DNA of 64,000 bases, taken from assembly GCA_038257155.1 (NCBI GenBank), contig JBBSJP010000015.1, positions 31,542-95,541 on the forward strand, read 5' to 3'. This DNA comes from Lysobacterales bacterium. GTDB lineage: Bacteria; Pseudomonadota; Gammaproteobacteria; Xanthomonadales; Xanthomonadaceae. Shown piece after piece: positions 2,359 through 64,000 of this stretch. The notes beneath the pieces are model-generated. The model had not been told where the DNA came from, made no database searches, and saw only the letters and a list, made by a program, of their open reading frames with translations. How positions within the stretch are numbered: the stretch's first letter is position 1; each line of letters opens with the position of its first letter. A program made the translations under genes and the position numbers.

Positions 2359-4903
2359 CGCGACCGGAGAAGGTCTTCAGTGCCCCGAGGATCGCGCTCC
2401 AGGCGCGGTCGATCATGCTGTCGCTGCTCGTCTCGATGACCCGCACATTGCCGCGCTTCAGCTCGCGTGCCAGCCAAACAAGGGGATACTCGCCGATCCG
2501 CTGGCCACGGTGGTTGACGAACAGGGTGTGGCCGGTGGTGGGGCTGAACCAGGACATGCGGCGGCGGGACTTGTCGCCTTGCTGGTTGATGGTGAATTCG
2601 AACCAGGTGCCATAGGGCAGATGCTTGATGCGCTCGAGCGCCGATTGTTCTTCGGCATCAAGCGGTATCAGCTTGTCACCCTTCGAATCCTGCGACTCAA
2701 CATTCTGGCCAAGGCGGGTGCGGCTCTTCAGGCGCATGGCCAGTTCGGTGCGCGAGGCCGGATCGGACTCGTCCTCATCCAGTGACGATGCCAGAAGTCG
2801 CATGGCGACCGATTGGGCATCCTCGCTGTGGTAGCCCACCTGGGTGAGTGACTGTTCAATCTCTGCCCGCAGCGACTGGACTTCCGCTGGACCAATCAGC
2901 GACTTGCCGGTGGTACGCAGGCTGACGGCGGACTCGATCAGTCGCTCCACGATTTGCAGCTGGTGGCGAAAGGCATCGGAATCCTCGCCCTGGCGCAGCA
3001 TGGTCAGGGAAAGCACGTCAGACCAGGCCTGCGCGAGCAGCGAATGCAGGAACTTCGGGATGCGCTTGCCGCGCAGTTTCTCGTCAATCGCTTCAGCGGC
3101 GCGAATCCGCGCTATCTCCAGTTTTTCCTTGCCGCGCGCGGCGTCGACGTGTCGCCTTTCAGCGACTTCGGCCTTGCGGGCCTGCAACTGCATGTGCTGG
3201 CTCAGATCGCCGAGCATCGACTCGAACAGGGCGTTGTCGCCGCTGAACTCGCTGGCCACCCGGTCAACCAGCATGCGCATCTTGTCGATCAGGTCGCGAT
3301 CGGCCTGCTCGTCGCTGACCCAGTAAGCGCCGGTCTCGGCGATGGCATTCAGCATCTGGCGTGCCGGATGCTGGCGCTGGGTGAAGAATCCCTTGTCATC
3401 CAATGCCACGCGCAGCAGGGGAACCTGCAGCTTGGTGAGCAAGGCCGCTGCCGGGCTGTTGGGGCGCACATCGCGCAGGATGTGATCGAACAGCATGCCG
3501 ACCAGGTCAATGGAATCGGCGTCCTTCTCCGCCAGCGCGGGGGCCTTGCCATCCGGTGCAAGCTGGCGCAGCTGGGCCAACAGGTCATGCTTGAGATGAG
3601 CAACGCTGCGCGTAACCGGTTTGCCTTCCAGCATGACCGGGGCAGGTGAGCGCTGCTGCAGCATCCCCAGAACGCTCTGCAAGTCCTCGGTGCGCGGAGT
3701 GAAGCTGTTGGCTTTCGGGGCCGCGGGCGCGCTGCCCCCTAGCTTGCCGAGCAGAGAGCGCCGTCCGGCGAGCAGCTGCCGGAGCACATCGAACATTTCC
3801 TGATCCTGTGGATCTCCCGCCGGCGCGACTTCCGGACGTTGACCGGGCCAGCCAGTCAAGGGTGCCGCGGGCCCGCCGCTGGGTCGCGGCGCGTGCTGGT
3901 CGCCCCCAGCATTGGCCGGAGGCTGTCTAGCGGCAGCAGCAGCTGTTTCGCTACGCGGTGCGGGCGGCTGCTTTGACGCCGGAACCGCCGGATCGACAGT
4001 AGCCGGCGCCCGGCGCTCGGCGCGCGCGGCGGCCTTGTTGGGTTCGGCCGCAAAGTTCGTGGGCTGGGCGCTCGGCTTGCTGCGCACTGGCACGAAGGTC
4101 AGGTGCGGTAGCACCTTCTCCTTGATGAGATAGTTGTTGACCATCTCGAAAAACGGCGAAAGGAACTGCAGCACCAGCCGGTCGAACTGCCGAAACAGCA
4201 GCTGTCGATGTTCACTGTTGAGGTCGAAGCAATGCGTCGCTTCCCGCAGTACGCGGCATAGCGCAGTGGGTCCGATCGGCAGGTGCTCGGCATCGAATGC
4301 GGGCCTGCCGGCGATGACGCCGAAGCGCTGCCCAAGCAGGAAAAGGGTCAGGCTGTTGCGCATTTCAGTGCGAGCGGCCACTTCATTCAGGACGATGTCC
4401 TCGTCCATGGCGACGTTCTCGACCAGCGAAAGCTCGGAATAGTTCAGACTGGAAAAGGCCTGCGCCTTGGGTGTCACCGGGTCGTGCAGGCGGGCCAGGG
4501 CTGCTTCCAGCTCCATGACGAAGCGCGGCACGAAGTCGGCACGCTTCATCCGTACTTCGCTCAGCGCCTCAAGGCACTGCTTCTGCACCTCATTGCTGCG
4601 GGCCTGTTCGGCGAGCTTGAAAAGGTGCTGCTCGGTCTCGTTGAGCATGGATCCGAGCCCGCGCTCCATCTCGTCCGACGCGTACTGGAGGACGCCTTCG
4701 AGAATGCTGCGCACGCGTCTTGGAAATCCGCGCTGGGCCAGCGTCGGCGGATGGGCATCCGCCTTCGGCCGGGGCGCTGCAGCCTTGCCGGTCATTTCAA
4801 TCAGCTCCCCCTGGGGTGCGGACCCCGATTCTATGCGAGCCGGCCCGCCCTTGCTAGGAGAAACCGGCGCAGCACCAAGGGTGCCTGCGCCGGACAGTTC
4901 CAT
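2333..4903 (-). CDS. Large cytoplasmic protein, DUF1631-like (tentative family call); start ambiguous (4903 or internal M at ~4795)
   Basis: 856-aa uninterrupted ORF co-oriented with the PilZ gene, which it overlaps by 26 nt. Pro/Ala-rich low-complexity centre flanked by helical regions. No recognisable catalytic motif. Confidence 0.55.
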   Translation of the reverse strand: MELSGAGTLGAAPVSPSKGGPARIESGSAPQGELIEMTGKAAAPRPKADAHPPTLAQRGFPRRVRSILEGVLQYASDEMERGLGSMLNETEQHLFKLAEQARSNEVQKQCLEALSEVRMKRADFVPRFVMELEAALARLHDPVTPKAQAFSSLNYSELSLVENVAMDEDIVLNEVAARTEMRNSLTLFLLGQRFGVIAGRPAFDAEHLPIGPTALCRVLREATHCFDLNSEHRQLLFRQFDRLVLQFLSPFFEMVNNYLIKEKVLPHLTFVPVRSKPSAQPTNFAAEPNKAAARAERRAPATVDPAVPASKQPPAPRSETAAAAARQPPANAGGDQHAPRPSGGPAAPLTGWPGQRPEVAPAGDPQDQEMFDVLRQLLAGRRSLLGKLGGSAPAAPKANSFTPRTEDLQSVLGMLQQRSPAPVMLEGKPVTRSVAHLKHDLLAQLRQLAPDGKAPALAEKDADSIDLVGMLFDHILRDVRPNSPAAALLTKLQVPLLRVALDDKGFFTQRQHPARQMLNAIAETGAYWVSDEQADRDLIDKMRMLVDRVASEFSGDNALFESMLGDLSQHMQLQARKAEVAERRHVDAARGKEKLEIARIRAAEAIDEKLRGKRIPKFLHSLLAQAWSDVLSLTMLRQGEDSDAFRHQLQIVERLIESAVSLRTTGKSLIGPAEVQSLRAEIEQSLTQVGYHSEDAQSVAMRLLASSLDEDESDPASRTELAMRLKSRTRLGQNVESQDSKGDKLIPLDAEEQSALERIKHLPYGTWFEFTINQQGDKSRRRMSWFSPTTGHTLFVNHRGQRIGEYPLVWLARELKRGNVRVIETSSDSMIDRAWSAILGALKTFSGRGESSTSST

Positions 4904-6783: not shown

Positions 6784-6939
6784 CACACTCCTTGCACAAC
6801 GCACACCCGCGAATTGCGCGTTGCGGAGCAGGATCAAGGAACGAAGGCAGTCGCCCGCGCACGGGCGACGACTCCGTGCCGTCGCCCACCGCAACGCGCG
6901 CCGTGCGCGGCGCACCGACCTGTGGTCGACACGCGGCGC

Positions 6940-7115
6940 GCCCTGGACCGGTCTCCGGACTTGCAGGGCAGGCAGGCACTGGGCCTGGCTGGTGTCCGCC
7001 GTCTTCCCGGGAGCATTCCCAGTGACGTTTGGCGGACTACGCCTGCTTACCGTTGCGGGGGCAGTGCCGGACTCTCACCGGCTTCCCGAGCACCCGGGGC
7101 GGCGTGGAGTCTAGG
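6940..7115 (-). promoter_or_regulatory. Cobalamin (B12) riboswitch in 5' leader of the TonB receptor gene
   Basis: Minus-strand sequence reads ...GGGAAGCCGGTGAGAGTCCGGCACUGCCCCCGCAACGGUAAG...GUCACUGGGAA...AGCCAGGCCCAGUGCCUGCC. This matches the conserved cobalamin-riboswitch core (GGUGAGAGUCC, CUGCCCCCGCAACGGUAAG) and a B12-box-like element. Confidence 0.75.
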
Positions 7116-7137
7116 CGAAATCCATTGCACCTGTCAC

Positions 7138-10311: not shown

Positions 10312-11898
10312 TTACTCGAAACCTGCGCGGAACACCCCCGCCGGATCACCCAGCGCTGTGATGGTGCCGGCACTGAACGCGCCCTCGCCCATGGCCTTGA
10401 TGCCGGTTTCCAGGACAGGCGGGACAACGCCGTCCTCCAGTTGAACCAATGCCGGCTTCAGGGCGCCTGTGACACCATCGATGCTGGCTTCTTCCGCAGA
10501 CACGAGCGTTCCCGGCAGCAGTTGGGCAAAGAAGGCTTCGCGTGTCAGCAGTTTCCCGGCAGCGTCCCGAAAAGCCGCCATCGAGGTGTCGATGGTGCGG
10601 CCCAGCACCTCGAGGGTGGGGTTGGCGATGGCGGTCACCGGGCCCTGTAGTCGCAGGTCGGCCACGTCTGGCGTTCCACGCTCGCGCAGCCGGGTCAGGA
10701 ACAGCATGCCGTTGGCATCAATGAAGGCTCGCAGTTCGACCTGCACCTCCGCAAGCGGACCATCGGGCAGTAACCCATCCTCATCGCGAACCTGTGGGGC
10801 CGCGACGAAATGCAAACCCAGAAGTTCGACCGAGGCGTCACCAGTGAAGGCGCCCGCATCGGCCGGTGCGATCAAACGCACCTGGGCCTGCAAAAAGCGT
10901 ATTTCGGTGGCAGTCAGCACGCCGGCATTGGCATCGAATTGACCATGCGCTTCGATCCGCACGCCCTCGTCCAGATCGTCCGGCGTGCCGCCGCGGAAGT
11001 CAGTCTGCGGGGTCGCATTGATGGTCACACCGGCTAGTTCGAAGGACAGCGGATCAGGCATCGGGTCCGCCAGGGCGGAGATGATTCCCTCAATTGAAGC
11101 ATCGCCTTCGGCAGGCTCGAACTCGTCGAACGCAGCGTCTTCACAGCTCGCCGAAACCACACCCTGCAGCGTGGCACCCGCGGCGAAGGCAGGATCAGGC
11201 ACCGCTTCTATCTCCACGAAGTGCCCCGGCTGAAGTGGACCACTGCAGTTGGCGGCTGTCACCCCCGAAATGTCCACCGCCTGCGCACCGATCGTCAGCG
11301 AATTGGCCGTTGCCGTCGTGATCGCGCCGGTTAGCTTCCAGTCCTGACCAGGATCGTCCATTCGGGCGATTCGGGTCGCTACCACCGTTCCGGCGATGAG
11401 GTCGGGAAAACCGCTGACTTCGACCTGATCGCCGATCGCGAGCGCTTCCAGTCCTGGCAAGCCATCGAACACCGTATCCCCGGTCACTAGCAGGGTCTGA
11501 GTTAGCACACTGGGTGGATCGATGCCGGTCATCGGGCCGCGCAGCAGGGTTTCGATGCGGATCATGTCCGCCACTCGAATACCGGCTGCATCCGGTGGCG
11601 AAGATGCCTCGACGTAGGCGCGATGGCCGCGTGCCAGTCGCAGCGCCTCGAGCGGAGCCAGCGTGTCGTTGTCGAGCAGGACAAGGGTGTCATCCGTTAC
11701 TCGGTACACGCCGGAGGCATTGATCCGAACCAGATCCTCGGGGCGTGCGTGAACACTCCCGGCGGCAAGTGCCAACGTCAATGCGAGCGCACCTGAATGC
11801 AGAAGAAGTAACCGATGGGACGGAAGGGTCATGCGAGACTCCAGTGAATACGGACGAGCGGAACGGTGGCTGGCCGTCAGGTTGTTGGGTGCGTTCAA
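10312..11898 (-). CDS. Secreted hypothetical protein (DUF5666-like repeats, tentative)
   Basis: Signal peptide MTLPSHRLLLLHSGALALTLALAAGSVHA (M23). The ATG at 11898 overlaps the upstream gene's stop by 4 nt (ATGA). Repetitive beta-rich sequence. Confidence 0.55.
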   Translation of the reverse strand: MNAPNNLTASHRSARPYSLESRMTLPSHRLLLLHSGALALTLALAAGSVHARPEDLVRINASGVYRVTDDTLVLLDNDTLAPLEALRLARGHRAYVEASSPPDAAGIRVADMIRIETLLRGPMTGIDPPSVLTQTLLVTGDTVFDGLPGLEALAIGDQVEVSGFPDLIAGTVVATRIARMDDPGQDWKLTGAITTATANSLTIGAQAVDISGVTAANCSGPLQPGHFVEIEAVPDPAFAAGATLQGVVSASCEDAAFDEFEPAEGDASIEGIISALADPMPDPLSFELAGVTINATPQTDFRGGTPDDLDEGVRIEAHGQFDANAGVLTATEIRFLQAQVRLIAPADAGAFTGDASVELLGLHFVAAPQVRDEDGLLPDGPLAEVQVELRAFIDANGMLFLTRLRERGTPDVADLRLQGPVTAIANPTLEVLGRTIDTSMAAFRDAAGKLLTREAFFAQLLPGTLVSAEEASIDGVTGALKPALVQLEDGVVPPVLETGIKAMGEGAFSAGTITALGDPAGVFRAGFE

Positions 11899-24082: not shown

Positions 24083-24240
24083 GGTCAGCGGCTGCGCCGC
24101 TTTTGGTAAGTGAGAGGTGAGGAAGTCAGTCGCCCGCTGCGCGGGCTGTAAGTTTTGGTCAGTCGGCGGCTGCGCCGCCTGTAAGAAGTGAGAAGTCAGC
24201 GACGCGACGCTTCGACTGACAGCCCGCGCAGCGGGCGACT
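24083..24240. repeat. GC-rich composite palindromic element (REP-like) between aroQ and accB
   Basis: 22-bp inverted repeat (AGTCGCCCGCTGCGCGGGCTGT at ~24128-24149 and its complement at ~24219-24240), each arm itself palindromic. Also direct repeats GGTCAG(T)CGGCTGCGCCGC...GTAAG.AGTGAGA. Confidence 0.6.
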
Positions 24241-24698
24241 TACTTTCTCTCCTCCTGACTCCCTGGAAGCCGCCGCAAGGCGGCATCCAGGGCAAGGCGG
24301 TAGCTTTCGGCTCCGAAGCCACAAATAACGCCAACCGCCAGGTCGCTCAAATAGCTGTGATGACGAAAGGGCTCGCGTGCGTGTGGGTTGGACACGTGGA
24401 TCTCGATGAACGGGATGGCCACCGCCGCCAGCGCGTCACGCAGCGCCACGGAGGTATGGGTGAAGGCGGCGGGATTGATCAGGATGAAGGCGGTACCATC
24501 GGTCCGTGCCGCCTGGACGCGCTCTACCAGCACGTGTTCGGCATTGGACTGCAGCGCATCCACGCGATGGCCAAGTGCAGCGGCCGACGCGCCGAGCTCC
24601 GCGTCTATCTCGGCCAGCGTGGTGCGGCCATAGACCTCCGGCTCGCGCTGTCCGAGCAGGTTCAGGTTGGGACCATGCAACAGCAGAATCTGCGCCAC
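24240..24698 (-). CDS. aroQ: 3-dehydroquinate dehydratase, type II
   Basis: GTG start ([24 protein letters not shown]). The type II DHQase core extends to ...[34 protein letters not shown]. aroQ-accB-accC order is conserved. Confidence 0.85.
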
Positions 24699-45918: not shown

Positions 45919-46169
45919 TCCGTTCGCACTGAGCGTAGCTGGCCGCAGGCCGGCGAAGTCGAAGTGCCTACCGCGTGTCCTTCGACTTCGGCCCCGCGGG
46001 CCTACGCTCAGGACGAACGGGTGTGGTTGGGCGGATGGGTGGTGCTGTCTGAGTCAATCTCTCCATGCCGTTCGCACTGAGCTTGGCTGGCCGCAGGCCG
46101 GCGAAGTCGAAGTGCCTGCCACGGGTCCTTCGACTTCGACCCCGCGGGCCTACGCTCAGGACGAACGGG
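45919..46169. repeat. Two tandem ~100-bp hairpin-forming repeat units (REP/MITE-like)
   Basis: Unit 1 at 45919-46022 and unit 2 at 46068-46169. Each has terminal IR CCGTTCGCACTGAGC(G/T)T.G...CTACGCTCAGGACGAACGG and inner IR GAAGTCGAAGTGCC...CTTCGACTTC. Confidence 0.8.
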
Positions 46170-62106: not shown

Positions 62107-63017
62107 TCATCGACAGTGCGAGTGGCTGGCGCAGTTGTGCGCTGGCGAACAGCCTGCCTGGTGGTCGCGCCAGTACGCCCAAAGCGGTGTTCCTGGTGAC
62201 ACCCGAAGGCTTTTCCCTGGCTGAGCAATCGGCGCAGGACAACCGTTACATGGCGATGCAGCAGGGCGTTTCGAGCGAACGTGCGCTGGCCCAGCACCGC
62301 GCCCTGCAGCGCGCGTTGGCGTCTGAACGCCCTGCGCTGACTTTCCCCGGCGATCCTCAGACCCCCGATGCGGTGTTCCCCAACAACGCGTTCGCCACCG
62401 CGCCCGGACGCCTGGTGCTGGGGCACATGCGGCATCCGGTTCGTCAGCGCGAATCCGAGCGCCGCGACGTGCGCGACTTCTTCAGCGACGTGCTGGACTA
62501 CGTCACGCACGACCTGCGCGAGCAGCCAGGCATCTGCGAACTGACCGGCTCGCTGGTCATCGAGCGCGGTCGCGGTATTGGTTACTGCGGACTGTCCGAA
62601 CGTTGCGATGCGCTGGGTGCCGCCGCCATGTACGACGCCTTCGACCTGCGCGCCAGTTTCGTGTTCGAACTGGCCAAGGGCGAGTACCACACCAATGTTG
62701 TCATGAGCGTGCTGGCTGGGCGGGCCGTGGTGTTGTGTCCGGATGGATTCGCCGATGCGGCAGTGGTTGACGCCATCGCGGCCGATTTCGCGCCGCATGT
62801 GGTGATGCTGTCGGCCGCCGAGAAGCATGCCTTTGCCGGCAACTGCATTGCGATATCCGATTCGTCGGTCTGGATGAGCGAGGCGGCTGCTGATGGTCTG
62901 GAGCCTTCGAGTCGAGTTGCGTTCGAGCGCGCCGGATTCCAGATCCGCAGCGTGGCGCTGGATGAGATCGAGAAGGCCGGTGGTTCGCTCAGGTGTTGTG
63001 TGGGGGAGATCTACTGA
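62103..63017 (+). CDS. Amidinotransferase-superfamily protein (arginine deiminase/DDAH-related)
   Basis: ATG 62103 overlaps the dusA stop (ATGA). C-terminal catalytic Cys motif GGSLRCCVGEI. ~304 aa. Confidence 0.7.
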   Translation: MIIDSASGWRSCALANSLPGGRASTPKAVFLVTPEGFSLAEQSAQDNRYMAMQQGVSSERALAQHRALQRALASERPALTFPGDPQTPDAVFPNNAFATAPGRLVLGHMRHPVRQRESERRDVRDFFSDVLDYVTHDLREQPGICELTGSLVIERGRGIGYCGLSERCDALGAAAMYDAFDLRASFVFELAKGEYHTNVVMSVLAGRAVVLCPDGFADAAVVDAIAADFAPHVVMLSAAEKHAFAGNCIAISDSSVWMSEAAADGLEPSSRVAFERAGFQIRSVALDEIEKAGGSLRCCVGEIY

Positions 63018-63180
63018 TTCCGGGCACTGTGCCGATCTTTCGGCACTGCTGACTCGCCCAGAAGGGACAAAGCTCCTGCGGCGCTGCTGTTCTCCGCTGT
63101 CGGAGGGGCAGCCTGGGTTTGAAGTTGGAGGGCGGATCTTGATCCGCCAGTGCGGGGTGGTCGGTTTGCTGTTCCGACAT

Positions 63181-63790
63181 CAACCGCAACTGCAACTACA
63201 GCCGCAACTGCAACTGCAACCTCAGCATCAAGATCAAGATCAAGATCAAACGCTTTCGCGCCCCTACGGGGCCACGAGTCACTTTCTCTTGCTTGTCCAA
63301 GAGAAAGTAACCAAAGAGAAGGACACCCCAGTCTCGCGCCGCGCGGGTGAAGCTCGCGCGGTCCCCTGCGCTGCTCGCCATGACCGGGCCGGCGCGAACT
63401 CGGCCATCCATGGCCTCGGACATGCGCGCCTTTCCCCCGGCCCTGGCTCCGCTGCTCGGCACGAGCCGATGGGGACCCAAGAGCCAACAGCAGCAGCCAA
63501 AGCAACAGCCAAAGCAACAGCCAAAGCCAAAGCCACAGCCAAAGCCACAGCACAGCCACAGCGGGCTTTGTCCCGGATCCAACTGCGACGTGGCGAGCGC
63601 AGCGATGCCACGCACTTCAACAAAGCGAGTGAAGCCGCGGCATTGATCGAAGCATGCAATTGCTCTTTGCTCTTTGCTCTTTGCCGTTGGCTCTGAATCC
63701 CCGTTCATTTTCCGCCGAGTAGCGGAAGAATCTGGCGGGGAAAGGCGCGCATGTCCGAGGCCATGGATGGCCGAGTTCGCGCCGGCCGGC
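63181..63790. repeat. Cluster of microsatellites (hexamer, hexamer, nonamer, heptamer) partly enclosed by a 49-bp inverted repeat
   Basis: (CAACTG/CAGCCG)x7 at 63181-63222, (CAAGAT)x3.5 at 63226-63249, (CAGCCAAAG)-type units at 63486-63560, (CTCTTTG)x3 at 63663-63686. IR GGCCGGCGCGAACTCGGCCATCCATGGCCTCGGACATGCGCGCCTTTCC at ~63385-63433, with its complement at ~63739-63787. Confidence 0.8.
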
Positions 63791-64000
63791 GGATTCTGAG
63801 CAACGCAGGGCACCCCGCGCGCTCTTTGCGCGGGGCGGGAAATCCGGGGTGCCCTTCTCTTTATCTCTTGCCAACCCGCTACGCTGCGGGTCGAGAGCGC
63901 CGGCGTGCGTGCCCGTTTCTCTTGTGGTCTTTCGACCGTTACCCAGCAAGGCGCCGCACGCCGGTTGCTCACGTCTTCGCCCGAACAGTTGCCCGACTAT

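Follow-up and report, generated by a model that had tools for sequence, protein, structure and literature searches.

The four microsatellites and the long inverted repeat near the right end of the window (the whole 64,000-nt stretch analysed here, from contig JBBSJP010000015.1 of a Lysobacterales bacterium) lie in a non-coding region that carries two inverted copies of a dispersed module. The module belongs to a family of RNA structures with good support from covariation and no entry in Rfam 15. Copies of the family share a hairpin loop consensus that resembles the preferred ligand of RsmA/CsrA, and there is roughly an even chance that the two arms of the inverted repeat are themselves RsmA/CsrA-binding RNA modules set in a nested palindromic mosaic, which would then be transcribed and bound by this protein.

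All four arrays named in the preliminary description of this DNA are recovered by Tandem Repeats Finder (TRF), and the cluster is exceptional, since the last 820 bp hold six of the ten TRF rows scoring at least 45 in the whole window (Table 1). The same description gave a perfect inverted repeat of ~49 bp around one of the arrays. The repeat is real and does bracket the array, but it measures 51 bp (63387-63437 against 63737-63787, with 299 bp between them), the longest perfect inverted repeat present, and is only the core of arms of ~190 nt. It extends imperfectly over 104 nt at 83% identity, with a 17-nt outer block at 94%, and a gapped alignment brings each arm to its full length (63313-63505 and 63660-63862), reaching into the microsatellites. 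At their inward ends, both arms pass through ..GAGCCAAC and then enter an array, which is made of CAGCCAAAG in the left arm and of CAAAGAG in the right, so that the inner two microsatellites occupy homologous positions in two inverted copies of one unit. A search for further copies, as the preliminary description had proposed, finds a 31-mer from the 51-bp repeat at just these two sites in the window, where chance would give 0, while the cores recur in other genomes.

All module copies were found through an exact match to the core, as a 24-mer or a 22-mer. The 24-mer is present at 22 loci in a collection of species-representative genomes, every one of them a metagenome-assembled genome (MAG), with carriers among the Lysobacterales, Rhodanobacteraceae, Dokdonella, Chiayiivirga, Lysobacteraceae, three Sedimenticola and other Gammaproteobacteria; one Lysobacterales MAG has five copies, several of them at contig ends. 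The 22-mer is present on 44 metagenome contigs. Including the window, there are 70 copies (66 loci besides the window) of two architectures, long and compact, and the exact-core copies come solely from uncultured or little-studied genera. The plasmid collection holds no copy. No family in Rfam 15 matches the arms: at E ≤ 1 the window gave only the neighbouring sX15 element and a spurious PreQ1-III, and a scan of 20 other module loci gave nothing at the gathering score. A literature search by sequence found no paper containing the core.

The long type numbers 31 copies, both window copies among them. Read on the strand with GGA in the loops (the GGA strand), it begins with a CT-rich low-complexity leader and a small hairpin, followed by an enclosing helix, PA, and an internal loop with GGGGAAAGG or GGGAGCAAGG. 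Then come an inner helix, PB, the apical hairpin GGCC-AUGGAU-GGCC, hairpin 2, GGGTGNCCTTCTCTTTGG and hairpin 1, and the 3' end is made up of a GC hairpin, a mini hairpin and a U-rich tract. Elsewhere this A-type module occurs singly or with a different partner, and the whole block seen in the window is not found repeated. The majority of long-type loci pair the A module with a divergent B-type module that carries four or five consecutive GGA-loop hairpins in ~170 nt, with the loops AGGAU, ACGGAU, AGGAG and GAGGAA and a conserved AGGGGCCCC; examples are found at L010:2010-2159 (+), which folds with a z-score of -5.1, and at L011, L019, L021, L023 and L012. The compact type (37-39 copies) consists of an outer stem of 22-32 bp that is unlike in each copy yet near-perfectly paired, with a conserved GGGAC/GTCCC stem base and two adjacent hairpins on top. 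In the GGA orientation, 22 of 31 compact units follow a gene on the same strand, often 10-75 nt past its stop codon, while the gene downstream may lie on either strand.

A compact subfamily (L027, L034, L038, L040, L041, L043, L044, L045 and L053, from the metagenomes Ga0079224 and Ga0070729) has conserved flanks outside the hypervariable outer stem, ..GGACTTTCCGG on the 5' side and CCCGCACCAA.. on the 3' side. The stem thus lies inside the repeated unit and is not derived from the target. Its 5' arms are G/T-rich and its 3' arms C/A-rich. Two other compact loci have paired units: L024 has a 407-aa gene with a unit at either end, at 4861 (+) and 6188 (-), and L065 has two divergent units 150 nt apart, at 907 (-) and 1076 (+), an arrangement like that of the window, followed by an (AACAGAG)n microsatellite.

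The fold of both types is maintained by compensatory change. In the long type, 96.3% of the alignment cells are paired, compared with 77.3% in shuffles, and 25 pairs show double-sided changes, compared with 15.4; none of 500 shuffles reaches any of five such measures, and slid controls give 32-45%. Hairpin 1, across 16 distinct versions, contains 191 Watson-Crick pairs and one G.U pair, the sequences differing while complementarity is kept. In the compact type, 28 of 41 pairs are compensatory, most outer-stem positions show all four Watson-Crick types, and the folding z-scores are -8.3 and -8.7. Even paralogues within one MAG differ from each other through compensatory changes.

The polarity of the structure was assessed by counting G.U against A.C mismatches, with all mismatches penalised equally. 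On the GGA strand, the compact outer stems (35 distinct ones) contain 867 Watson-Crick pairs, along with 22 G.U and 2 A.C (binomial p = 3.6e-5). Since such a G.U excess fits the prediction for an RNA and not that for a DNA palindrome, it indicates RNA-level selection on the GGA strand in the compact type. The four defined helices of the long type lean in the same direction, though not significantly, with a ratio of 8:3 overall and 6:1 in the enclosing helix.

The loops point to a possible ligand. The second-hairpin loops of the compact type are AGGGAU (9), AUGGAC (7), AUGGAU (5), AGGGAC, ACGGAU, AGGGAG, ACGGAC and AGGGAA, that is, they vary as A-N-GGA-N only, with the A and the GGA constant and both N positions variable. 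When the core hairpin is excluded, a strict A(N)GGA(N) loop is present in 93 of the 807 short hairpins that lie no more than 450 nt from the cores, compared with 42 of 4486 at least 1 kb away at the same loci (odds ratio 13.8, p = 3e-46); with stems restricted to 6 bp or longer, the counts become 40 of 175 near the cores (23%) and 7 of 414 far from them (1.7%). The consensus for CsrA obtained by systematic evolution of ligands by exponential enrichment (SELEX) is RUACARGGAUGU, in which ACA and GGA are invariant and the GGA lies in a hairpin loop (PMC4347634). Sites that match this consensus at 10 or more of 12 positions and lie within 120 nt of the cores number 27 on the GGA strand, five of them matching at all 12 (for example GUACAGGGAUGU), and one on the opposite strand. 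Their density is 1.6 per kb near the cores against a background of 0.039 per kb, a ~40-fold difference.

These features suggest how the region might work. It would be a nested palindromic mosaic of non-coding modules in the spacer that follows the DDAH-like gene and that ends, in relatives, at a convergent Mla-type operon, and the 51-bp inverted repeat would be the conserved apex of two inverted ~190-nt structured RNA modules. Both would be transcribed outward from a centre of ~100 nt, the left module on the minus strand and the right on the plus strand, which makes the central spacer (63563-63659) a possible divergent promoter region. The nested helices of each window module have a C-G-closed AUGGAU hexaloop and a second GGA in an internal loop ~26 nt away, and this geometry would suit an RsmA/CsrA dimer; dual-site binding by CsrA tolerates 10-63 nt between the sites. 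The modules may thus titrate RsmA in the manner of CsrB, RsmY, RsmZ and RsmU, or make the fate of adjacent transcripts depend on this protein. The microsatellites would serve as slippage-prone low-complexity linkers, which on the RNA strand would form U/C-rich leaders, (CUUUGGCUG)n and (CUCUUUG)n; equivalent CT-rich tracts lie at matching places in other module copies. On the minus strand, hairpin 1, the GC hairpin and the CGC-GAAA-GCG mini hairpin are directly followed by a UUUGAUCUUGAUCUUGAUCUUG tract, a series that would be terminator-like.

A motif of the form GCTTCGA(A/T)-N8-10-GGTCGCGG/GCCGCGG recurs between divergent modules, in the window (63635-63653, as GCTTCGATCAATGCCGCGG) and in the centres of the composites at L006, L010, L011 and L050. 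It could be a promoter or an operator.

A broader proposal is that the modules make up a previously unrecognised, dispersed and mobile RsmA/CsrA-binding RNA family, the counterpart of CsrB/RsmY/RsmZ in the Lysobacterales (Xanthomonadales) and some other Gammaproteobacteria, which spreads as divergent pairs into terminator palindromes. Both the capacity of the RsmA sponge and the set of transcripts bound in cis would then shift through the gain, loss and slippage of repeats. This is at present a tentative and rather doubtful extension.

Several observations weigh against RsmA/CsrA binding by the window modules. Each has only one canonical hairpin, which matches the SELEX consensus at 8 of 12 positions, and GGA is not enriched overall in the region; across the window there are 6 ANGGAN hairpins against 3.9 ± 2.6 in shuffles, which is no enrichment. 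The region contains no match to a sigma-70 promoter, and no GacA/UvrY box (TGTAAG-N6-CTTACA with up to three mismatches) is found near it. Nor is there a canonical terminator, the scan giving one weak site at chance level; the terminator-like series consists only of hairpins and then an interrupted U-rich tract. No Csr/Rsm covariance model matches the window between 61000 and 64000 at E ≤ 1, and the best score elsewhere, for RsmW on the L021 partner module, is a non-significant 24.1 bits (E = 4.4). The csrA gene was not found in the sequence examined. As to the structure, the window copies have weak folding z-scores (-1.1 and -1.7), the two strands of the long type give similar folding energies (-68.4 and -64.5 kcal/mol), hairpins 1 and 2 are nearly all Watson-Crick, as DNA palindromes would be, and the invariance of the core is by construction because copies were ascertained by an exact core match. 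The strand polarity of the long type is not significant (p = 0.23), and neither is that from a crude scan of all stems (21:15); a first alignment of 14 sequences, with 5 G.U and 5 A.C, was uninformative. Finally, the copy number, nesting and presence or absence in close relatives all resemble those of selfish repeats.

The nesting and the variable presence are seen at the locus itself. A DDAH/amidinotransferase-like gene (PF19420) ends at the stop codon at 63017, preceded by dusA, a gene for a small HNH protein and a TraB/GumN gene, and the region of microsatellites and inverted repeats lies downstream of that stop. The protein has homologues that are 92% identical on L068, an 83.6-kb metagenome contig, and 79% identical on L071-L073, with the same upstream synteny, and in these relatives the next genes downstream are a convergent Mla-type ATP-binding cassette operon. 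The spacer after the DDAH-like gene measures 983 nt or more in the window, against 439 nt in L068 and ~198 nt in L071, where it holds just an F-like hairpin and a CAGCAA-type tract. In L068 it is a symmetric palindrome, running from flank hairpin F through a short ATCAAC-AGCAAC-AGCAAG-ATCAAACGC tract, a GC hairpin, hairpin 1, which occurs here alone at the centre, a second GC hairpin and three CTTGAT units to an inverted F. An A module, sX15 and a GGCC-ANGGAN-GGCC hairpin are all absent from it.

The window aligns with this spacer over 63095-63311, apart from 54 extra nt (nine hexamers, 63187-63240) in its CAACNG/ATCAAG tract. The whole block 63313-63862, bounded by AAAGAGAAGGRCACCCC...GGGGTGYCCTTCTCTTT, is missing from L068, and there is no target-site duplication at its edges, as no direct repeat is common to the flanks ..AGAAAGTAAC and ATCTCTTGCC... 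Hairpin 1 has a 6-nt loop that reads in opposite orientation in the window (CTTGTC, 63292-63297) and in L068 (GACAAG, 11156-11161), which is either the trace of a recombination event inside the palindrome or the result of a deletion that kept the other copy of hairpin 1. The comparison shows the locus to be a nested palindrome of the form F( microsatellite( hairpin 1( A( centre )A ) ) ), with an inner block that is gained or lost between close relatives and linkers that change in length by slippage.

Short-read contigs carrying the DDAH-like gene (L001, of 1549 nt, L069 and L070) all end 130-220 nt past its stop codon, either within the repeat mosaic or shortly ahead of it. Assemblies thus stop at this spacer.

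The most serious alternative, although on the whole unlikely, is that the block is a selfish palindromic repeat acting at the level of DNA, a mosaic resembling repetitive extragenic palindromes (REPs), bacterial interspersed mosaic elements (BIMEs) or miniature inverted-repeat transposable elements (MITEs), which spreads or is lost by recombination or transposition and whose copies in the window have no RNA function. The hairpins would then matter for DNA processing, and the GGA loops would be incidental or would serve a DNA-binding factor, although we know of none that recognises A-N-GGA-N loops. This explanation accounts well for the absence of the block from a relative with a 92% identical flanking gene, for the nested palindromic layers of F, hairpin 1 and A with the inverted loop of hairpin 1, for the copies at contig ends in a MAG and for the second multi-copy element, sX15, that abuts the block; the non-significant polarity of the long type and the about equal folding of the two strands also fit it. 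It does not account for the 22 G.U against 2 A.C in compact relatives that share the core, nor for the strand specificity of the A-N-GGA-N loops and SELEX matches (27 against 1). Moreover, the block edges lack a target-site duplication, and the compensatory differences between paralogues of one genome indicate selection on each copy and not a recent burst.

Known repeats give a similarly divided picture. REP and BIME elements of enterobacteria and the SMAG elements of Stenotrophomonas are intergenic palindromic mosaics of hairpins and linkers that are multi-copy, are often found between genes in convergent or co-directional arrangement and interrupt assemblies. The modules resemble them as dispersed intergenic palindromic units in mosaics, and so do two other places in the window. 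One is an intergenic mosaic at 24084-24300, with the GC hairpins GCGGCTGCGCCGC, GCCCGCTGCGCGGGC and GGCGGCTGCGCCGCC, purine-rich low-complexity linkers (AAGTGAGAGGTGAGGAAGTCAG) and a 40-nt inverted repeat (24114-24153 / 24215-24254), which may be a related modular system. The other is a pair of direct copies, 94% identical, of a ~100-nt long-hairpin repeat, CCGTTCGCACTGAGCGTAGC...GCCTACGCTCAGGACGAACGG, at 45920-46021 and 46068-46169, spaced 148 nt start to start with 46 nt between. Compared with REP and BIME units, however, the modules are larger (~100-190 nt) and have a multi-helix fold with a conserved apex and loop motif; no GTAG-type REP head was noticed in them by eye.

MITE-type elements include Correia/NEMIS and ERIC. 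A MITE with terminal inverted repeats, as the preliminary description had also suggested, is in keeping with the ~550-bp non-coding block bounded by inverted repeats and its presence or absence between the window and L068. The likeness ends there: no target-site duplication is seen, the whole block is not repeated and the arms are independent modules.

Less probable still is that the spacer is chiefly a cassette for bidirectional termination and protection of the 3' ends of two convergent operons, in which hairpin 1, the GC hairpins and the T-rich CTTGAT tracts would halt or stabilise transcripts arriving from either side, with the A modules as passengers. In its favour, the symmetric palindrome of the L068 spacer has hairpin 1 at its centre and is rich in CTTGAT on either strand, compact units often lie 10-75 nt past a same-strand stop codon, and long GC-rich stems would block 3' exonucleases, as the stems of REP-stabilised mRNAs do. 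But the terminator scan is at chance level, the T tracts are interrupted and lie several nt from the stems, and the conserved apex, the loop consensus and the covariation of the A module are left unexplained. A role at 3' ends is in any case compatible with either RsmA/CsrA binding or a selfish repeat.

The preliminary description had raised the idea of slipped-strand phase variation, in which the microsatellite copy number would toggle a neighbouring gene. Slippage itself is borne out, in that four arrays lie within ~500 bp and the CAACNG/ATCAAG tract is nine hexamers shorter in L068, so the repeat number is polymorphic between close relatives. A switch, though, is very improbable. The arrays are short (3.6-6.7 units), two of them are imperfect, and similar low-complexity linkers are common to the module family at many loci. 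No downstream gene offers itself for modulation, as the next gene in relatives is convergent and the arrays lie beyond its 3' end; placed between convergent 3' ends, with neither a promoter spacer nor a reading frame, they leave a classical switch with no obvious target.

The start of a low-complexity protein-coding gene running past the window end, also suggested at the outset, can hardly be credited: long open reading frames do traverse the region, but they overlap on both strands, as GC-rich DNA would give, have no Pfam match and lie 3' of the DDAH-like stop codon at 63017, the covariation is of the base-pairing type, and in the close relative the block is missing from a 439-nt spacer between conserved genes, the convergent Mla-type operon coming next.

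If the arms do bind RsmA/CsrA, their nearest functional relatives would be the Csr/Rsm small RNAs (CsrB/CsrC/RsmB/RsmX/RsmY/RsmZ/RsmV/RsmW, clan CL00106), which are likewise non-coding, present A(N)GGA in stem-loops and may have multiple paralogues. The B-type partner modules elsewhere, with their four or five GGA-loop hairpins, are similar in this respect, whereas a window module offers a single canonical hairpin besides the GGA in its internal loop. The modules also differ from the clan in lacking a model match, a GacA/UvrY box and a clear terminator, and in belonging to a dispersed nested palindromic mosaic whose presence varies between close relatives. A second comparison is RsmU of Xanthomonas campestris, which lies in the 3' untranslated region of comEA, has a few GGA motifs, binds RsmA experimentally and is unrelated to CsrB or RsmY/Z (PMC7694677). 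It shares with the modules the bacterial order and a position 3' of a protein-coding gene, a likeness by description, but it is reported solely from the genus Xanthomonas at a single locus (PMC7694677), whereas the modules are multi-copy and found in other genera.

The right end of the region is complicated by the partial copy of sX15 (sX15/asX7, RF02234), itself a multi-copy non-coding element of the Xanthomonadaceae with 10 homologues in S. maltophilia K279a (PMC3300014). Of a normal hairpin 1, only a CTCTTG remnant is left in the right module, and the sX15 copy starts where that hairpin is expected; it may represent the insertion of a second multi-copy element. It is a separate element outside the module family, differing in sequence and structure and having no GGA hairpins, and it does not adjoin a module in 20 other loci, nor is it found in the L068 spacer. 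Elsewhere, the window contains a full-length cobalamin riboswitch (RF00174) on the minus strand at 6929-7129 (85.2 bits), and no tRNA or tmRNA.

Table 1. Features of the microsatellite and inverted-repeat region, in window positions; leader, trailer and RNA strand assignments are those proposed in the text (MFE, minimum free energy)
Feature	Position	Strand	Details and basis
Flank hairpin F (GGGCGGATCTTGATCCGCC), outermost palindrome layer	63130..63148	unassigned	Conserved in L068 spacer on both sides, in inverted orientation; F-like hairpin in L071
CAACTG microsatellite (CAGTTG on proposed RNA strand), left module 3' trailer	63181..63220	minus	TRF, 6.7 units, 79% matches
ATCAAG microsatellite (UUUGAUCUUGAUCUUGAUCUUG on minus strand), U-rich tract after terminal hairpins	63227..63249	minus	TRF, 3.8 units, 100% matches; 1-3 CTTGAT units at the homologous position in L068 and L002
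Shared 3' module	63250..63311	minus	Inverted repeat; mini hairpin CGC-GAAA-GCG, GC hairpin GCCCC-TAC-GGGGC (63260-63272), hairpin 1 (63276-63311, GAGTCACTTTCTCTTG/CAAGAGAAAGTAAC)
Left A-type module	63313..63505	minus (proposed RNA sense)	Inverted-repeat arm, covariation, MFE fold gives the same helices
Left module, boundary and helices			Boundary AAAGAGAAGGACACCCC; hairpin 2 (63339-63361); enclosing helix PA (63377-63388 / 63436-63447); inner helix PB
Left module, apex			GGCC-AUGGAU-GGCC in 24-nt core (63399-63422); internal-loop GGGGAAAGG (63429-63437, as complement)
CAGCCAAAG-type array, (CUUUGGCUG)n, left module 5' leader	63482..63562	minus	TRF, AGCCAC/CAGCCAAAG-type, 75% matches, copy spacing 12/12/18/12; follows shared GAGCCAAC; CT-rich low-complexity leaders occupy this position in other copies
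Central spacer between modules	63563..63659	unassigned	Holds GCTTCGATCAATGCCGCGG (63635-63653, minus strand)
CTCTTTG microsatellite, right module 5' leader	63660..63685	plus	TRF, TTGCTCT (= CTCTTTG), 3.6 units at 63660-63684, 100% matches; position homologous to left array
Right A-type module	63686..63862	plus (proposed RNA sense)	Inverted-repeat arm, covariation, MFE fold
Right module, 5' parts			GTTGGCTC; hairpin 63712-63725; PA (63727-63738 / 63786-63797); internal-loop GGGGAAAGG (63737-63745)
Right module, 3' parts			GGCC-AUGGAU-GGCC core (63752-63775); hairpin 2 (63813-63835); boundary GGGGTGCCCTTCTCTTT (63846-63862)
Outer hairpin ACCCGC-TACGCT-GCGGGT	63874..63891	unassigned	At the expected hairpin 1 site of the right module
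Partial sX15 small RNA/repeat (RF02234)	63885..64000	minus	54.8 bits against gathering score 55, E = 1.4e-7; 5'-truncated, cut by window end

RsmA/CsrA controls virulence, motility, biofilm formation and secretion systems in Xanthomonas and its relatives. These bacteria are reported to have no CsrB/CsrC and no recognisable RsmY/RsmZ genes (PMC3300014, PMC7286519), and one unrelated RsmA antagonist, RsmU, is known in the lineage (PMC7694677). Since CsrB/CsrC homologues are missing there, the module family offers testable candidates: a conserved, covarying, multi-copy RNA module with hairpins that match the CsrA ligand consensus is a concrete candidate for an RsmA ligand in this lineage. Whatever its function, the family accounts for the assembly breaks at such spacers. 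If RsmA/CsrA is indeed its ligand, binding sites for a regulator would be borne on repeats that even close relatives may have or lack.

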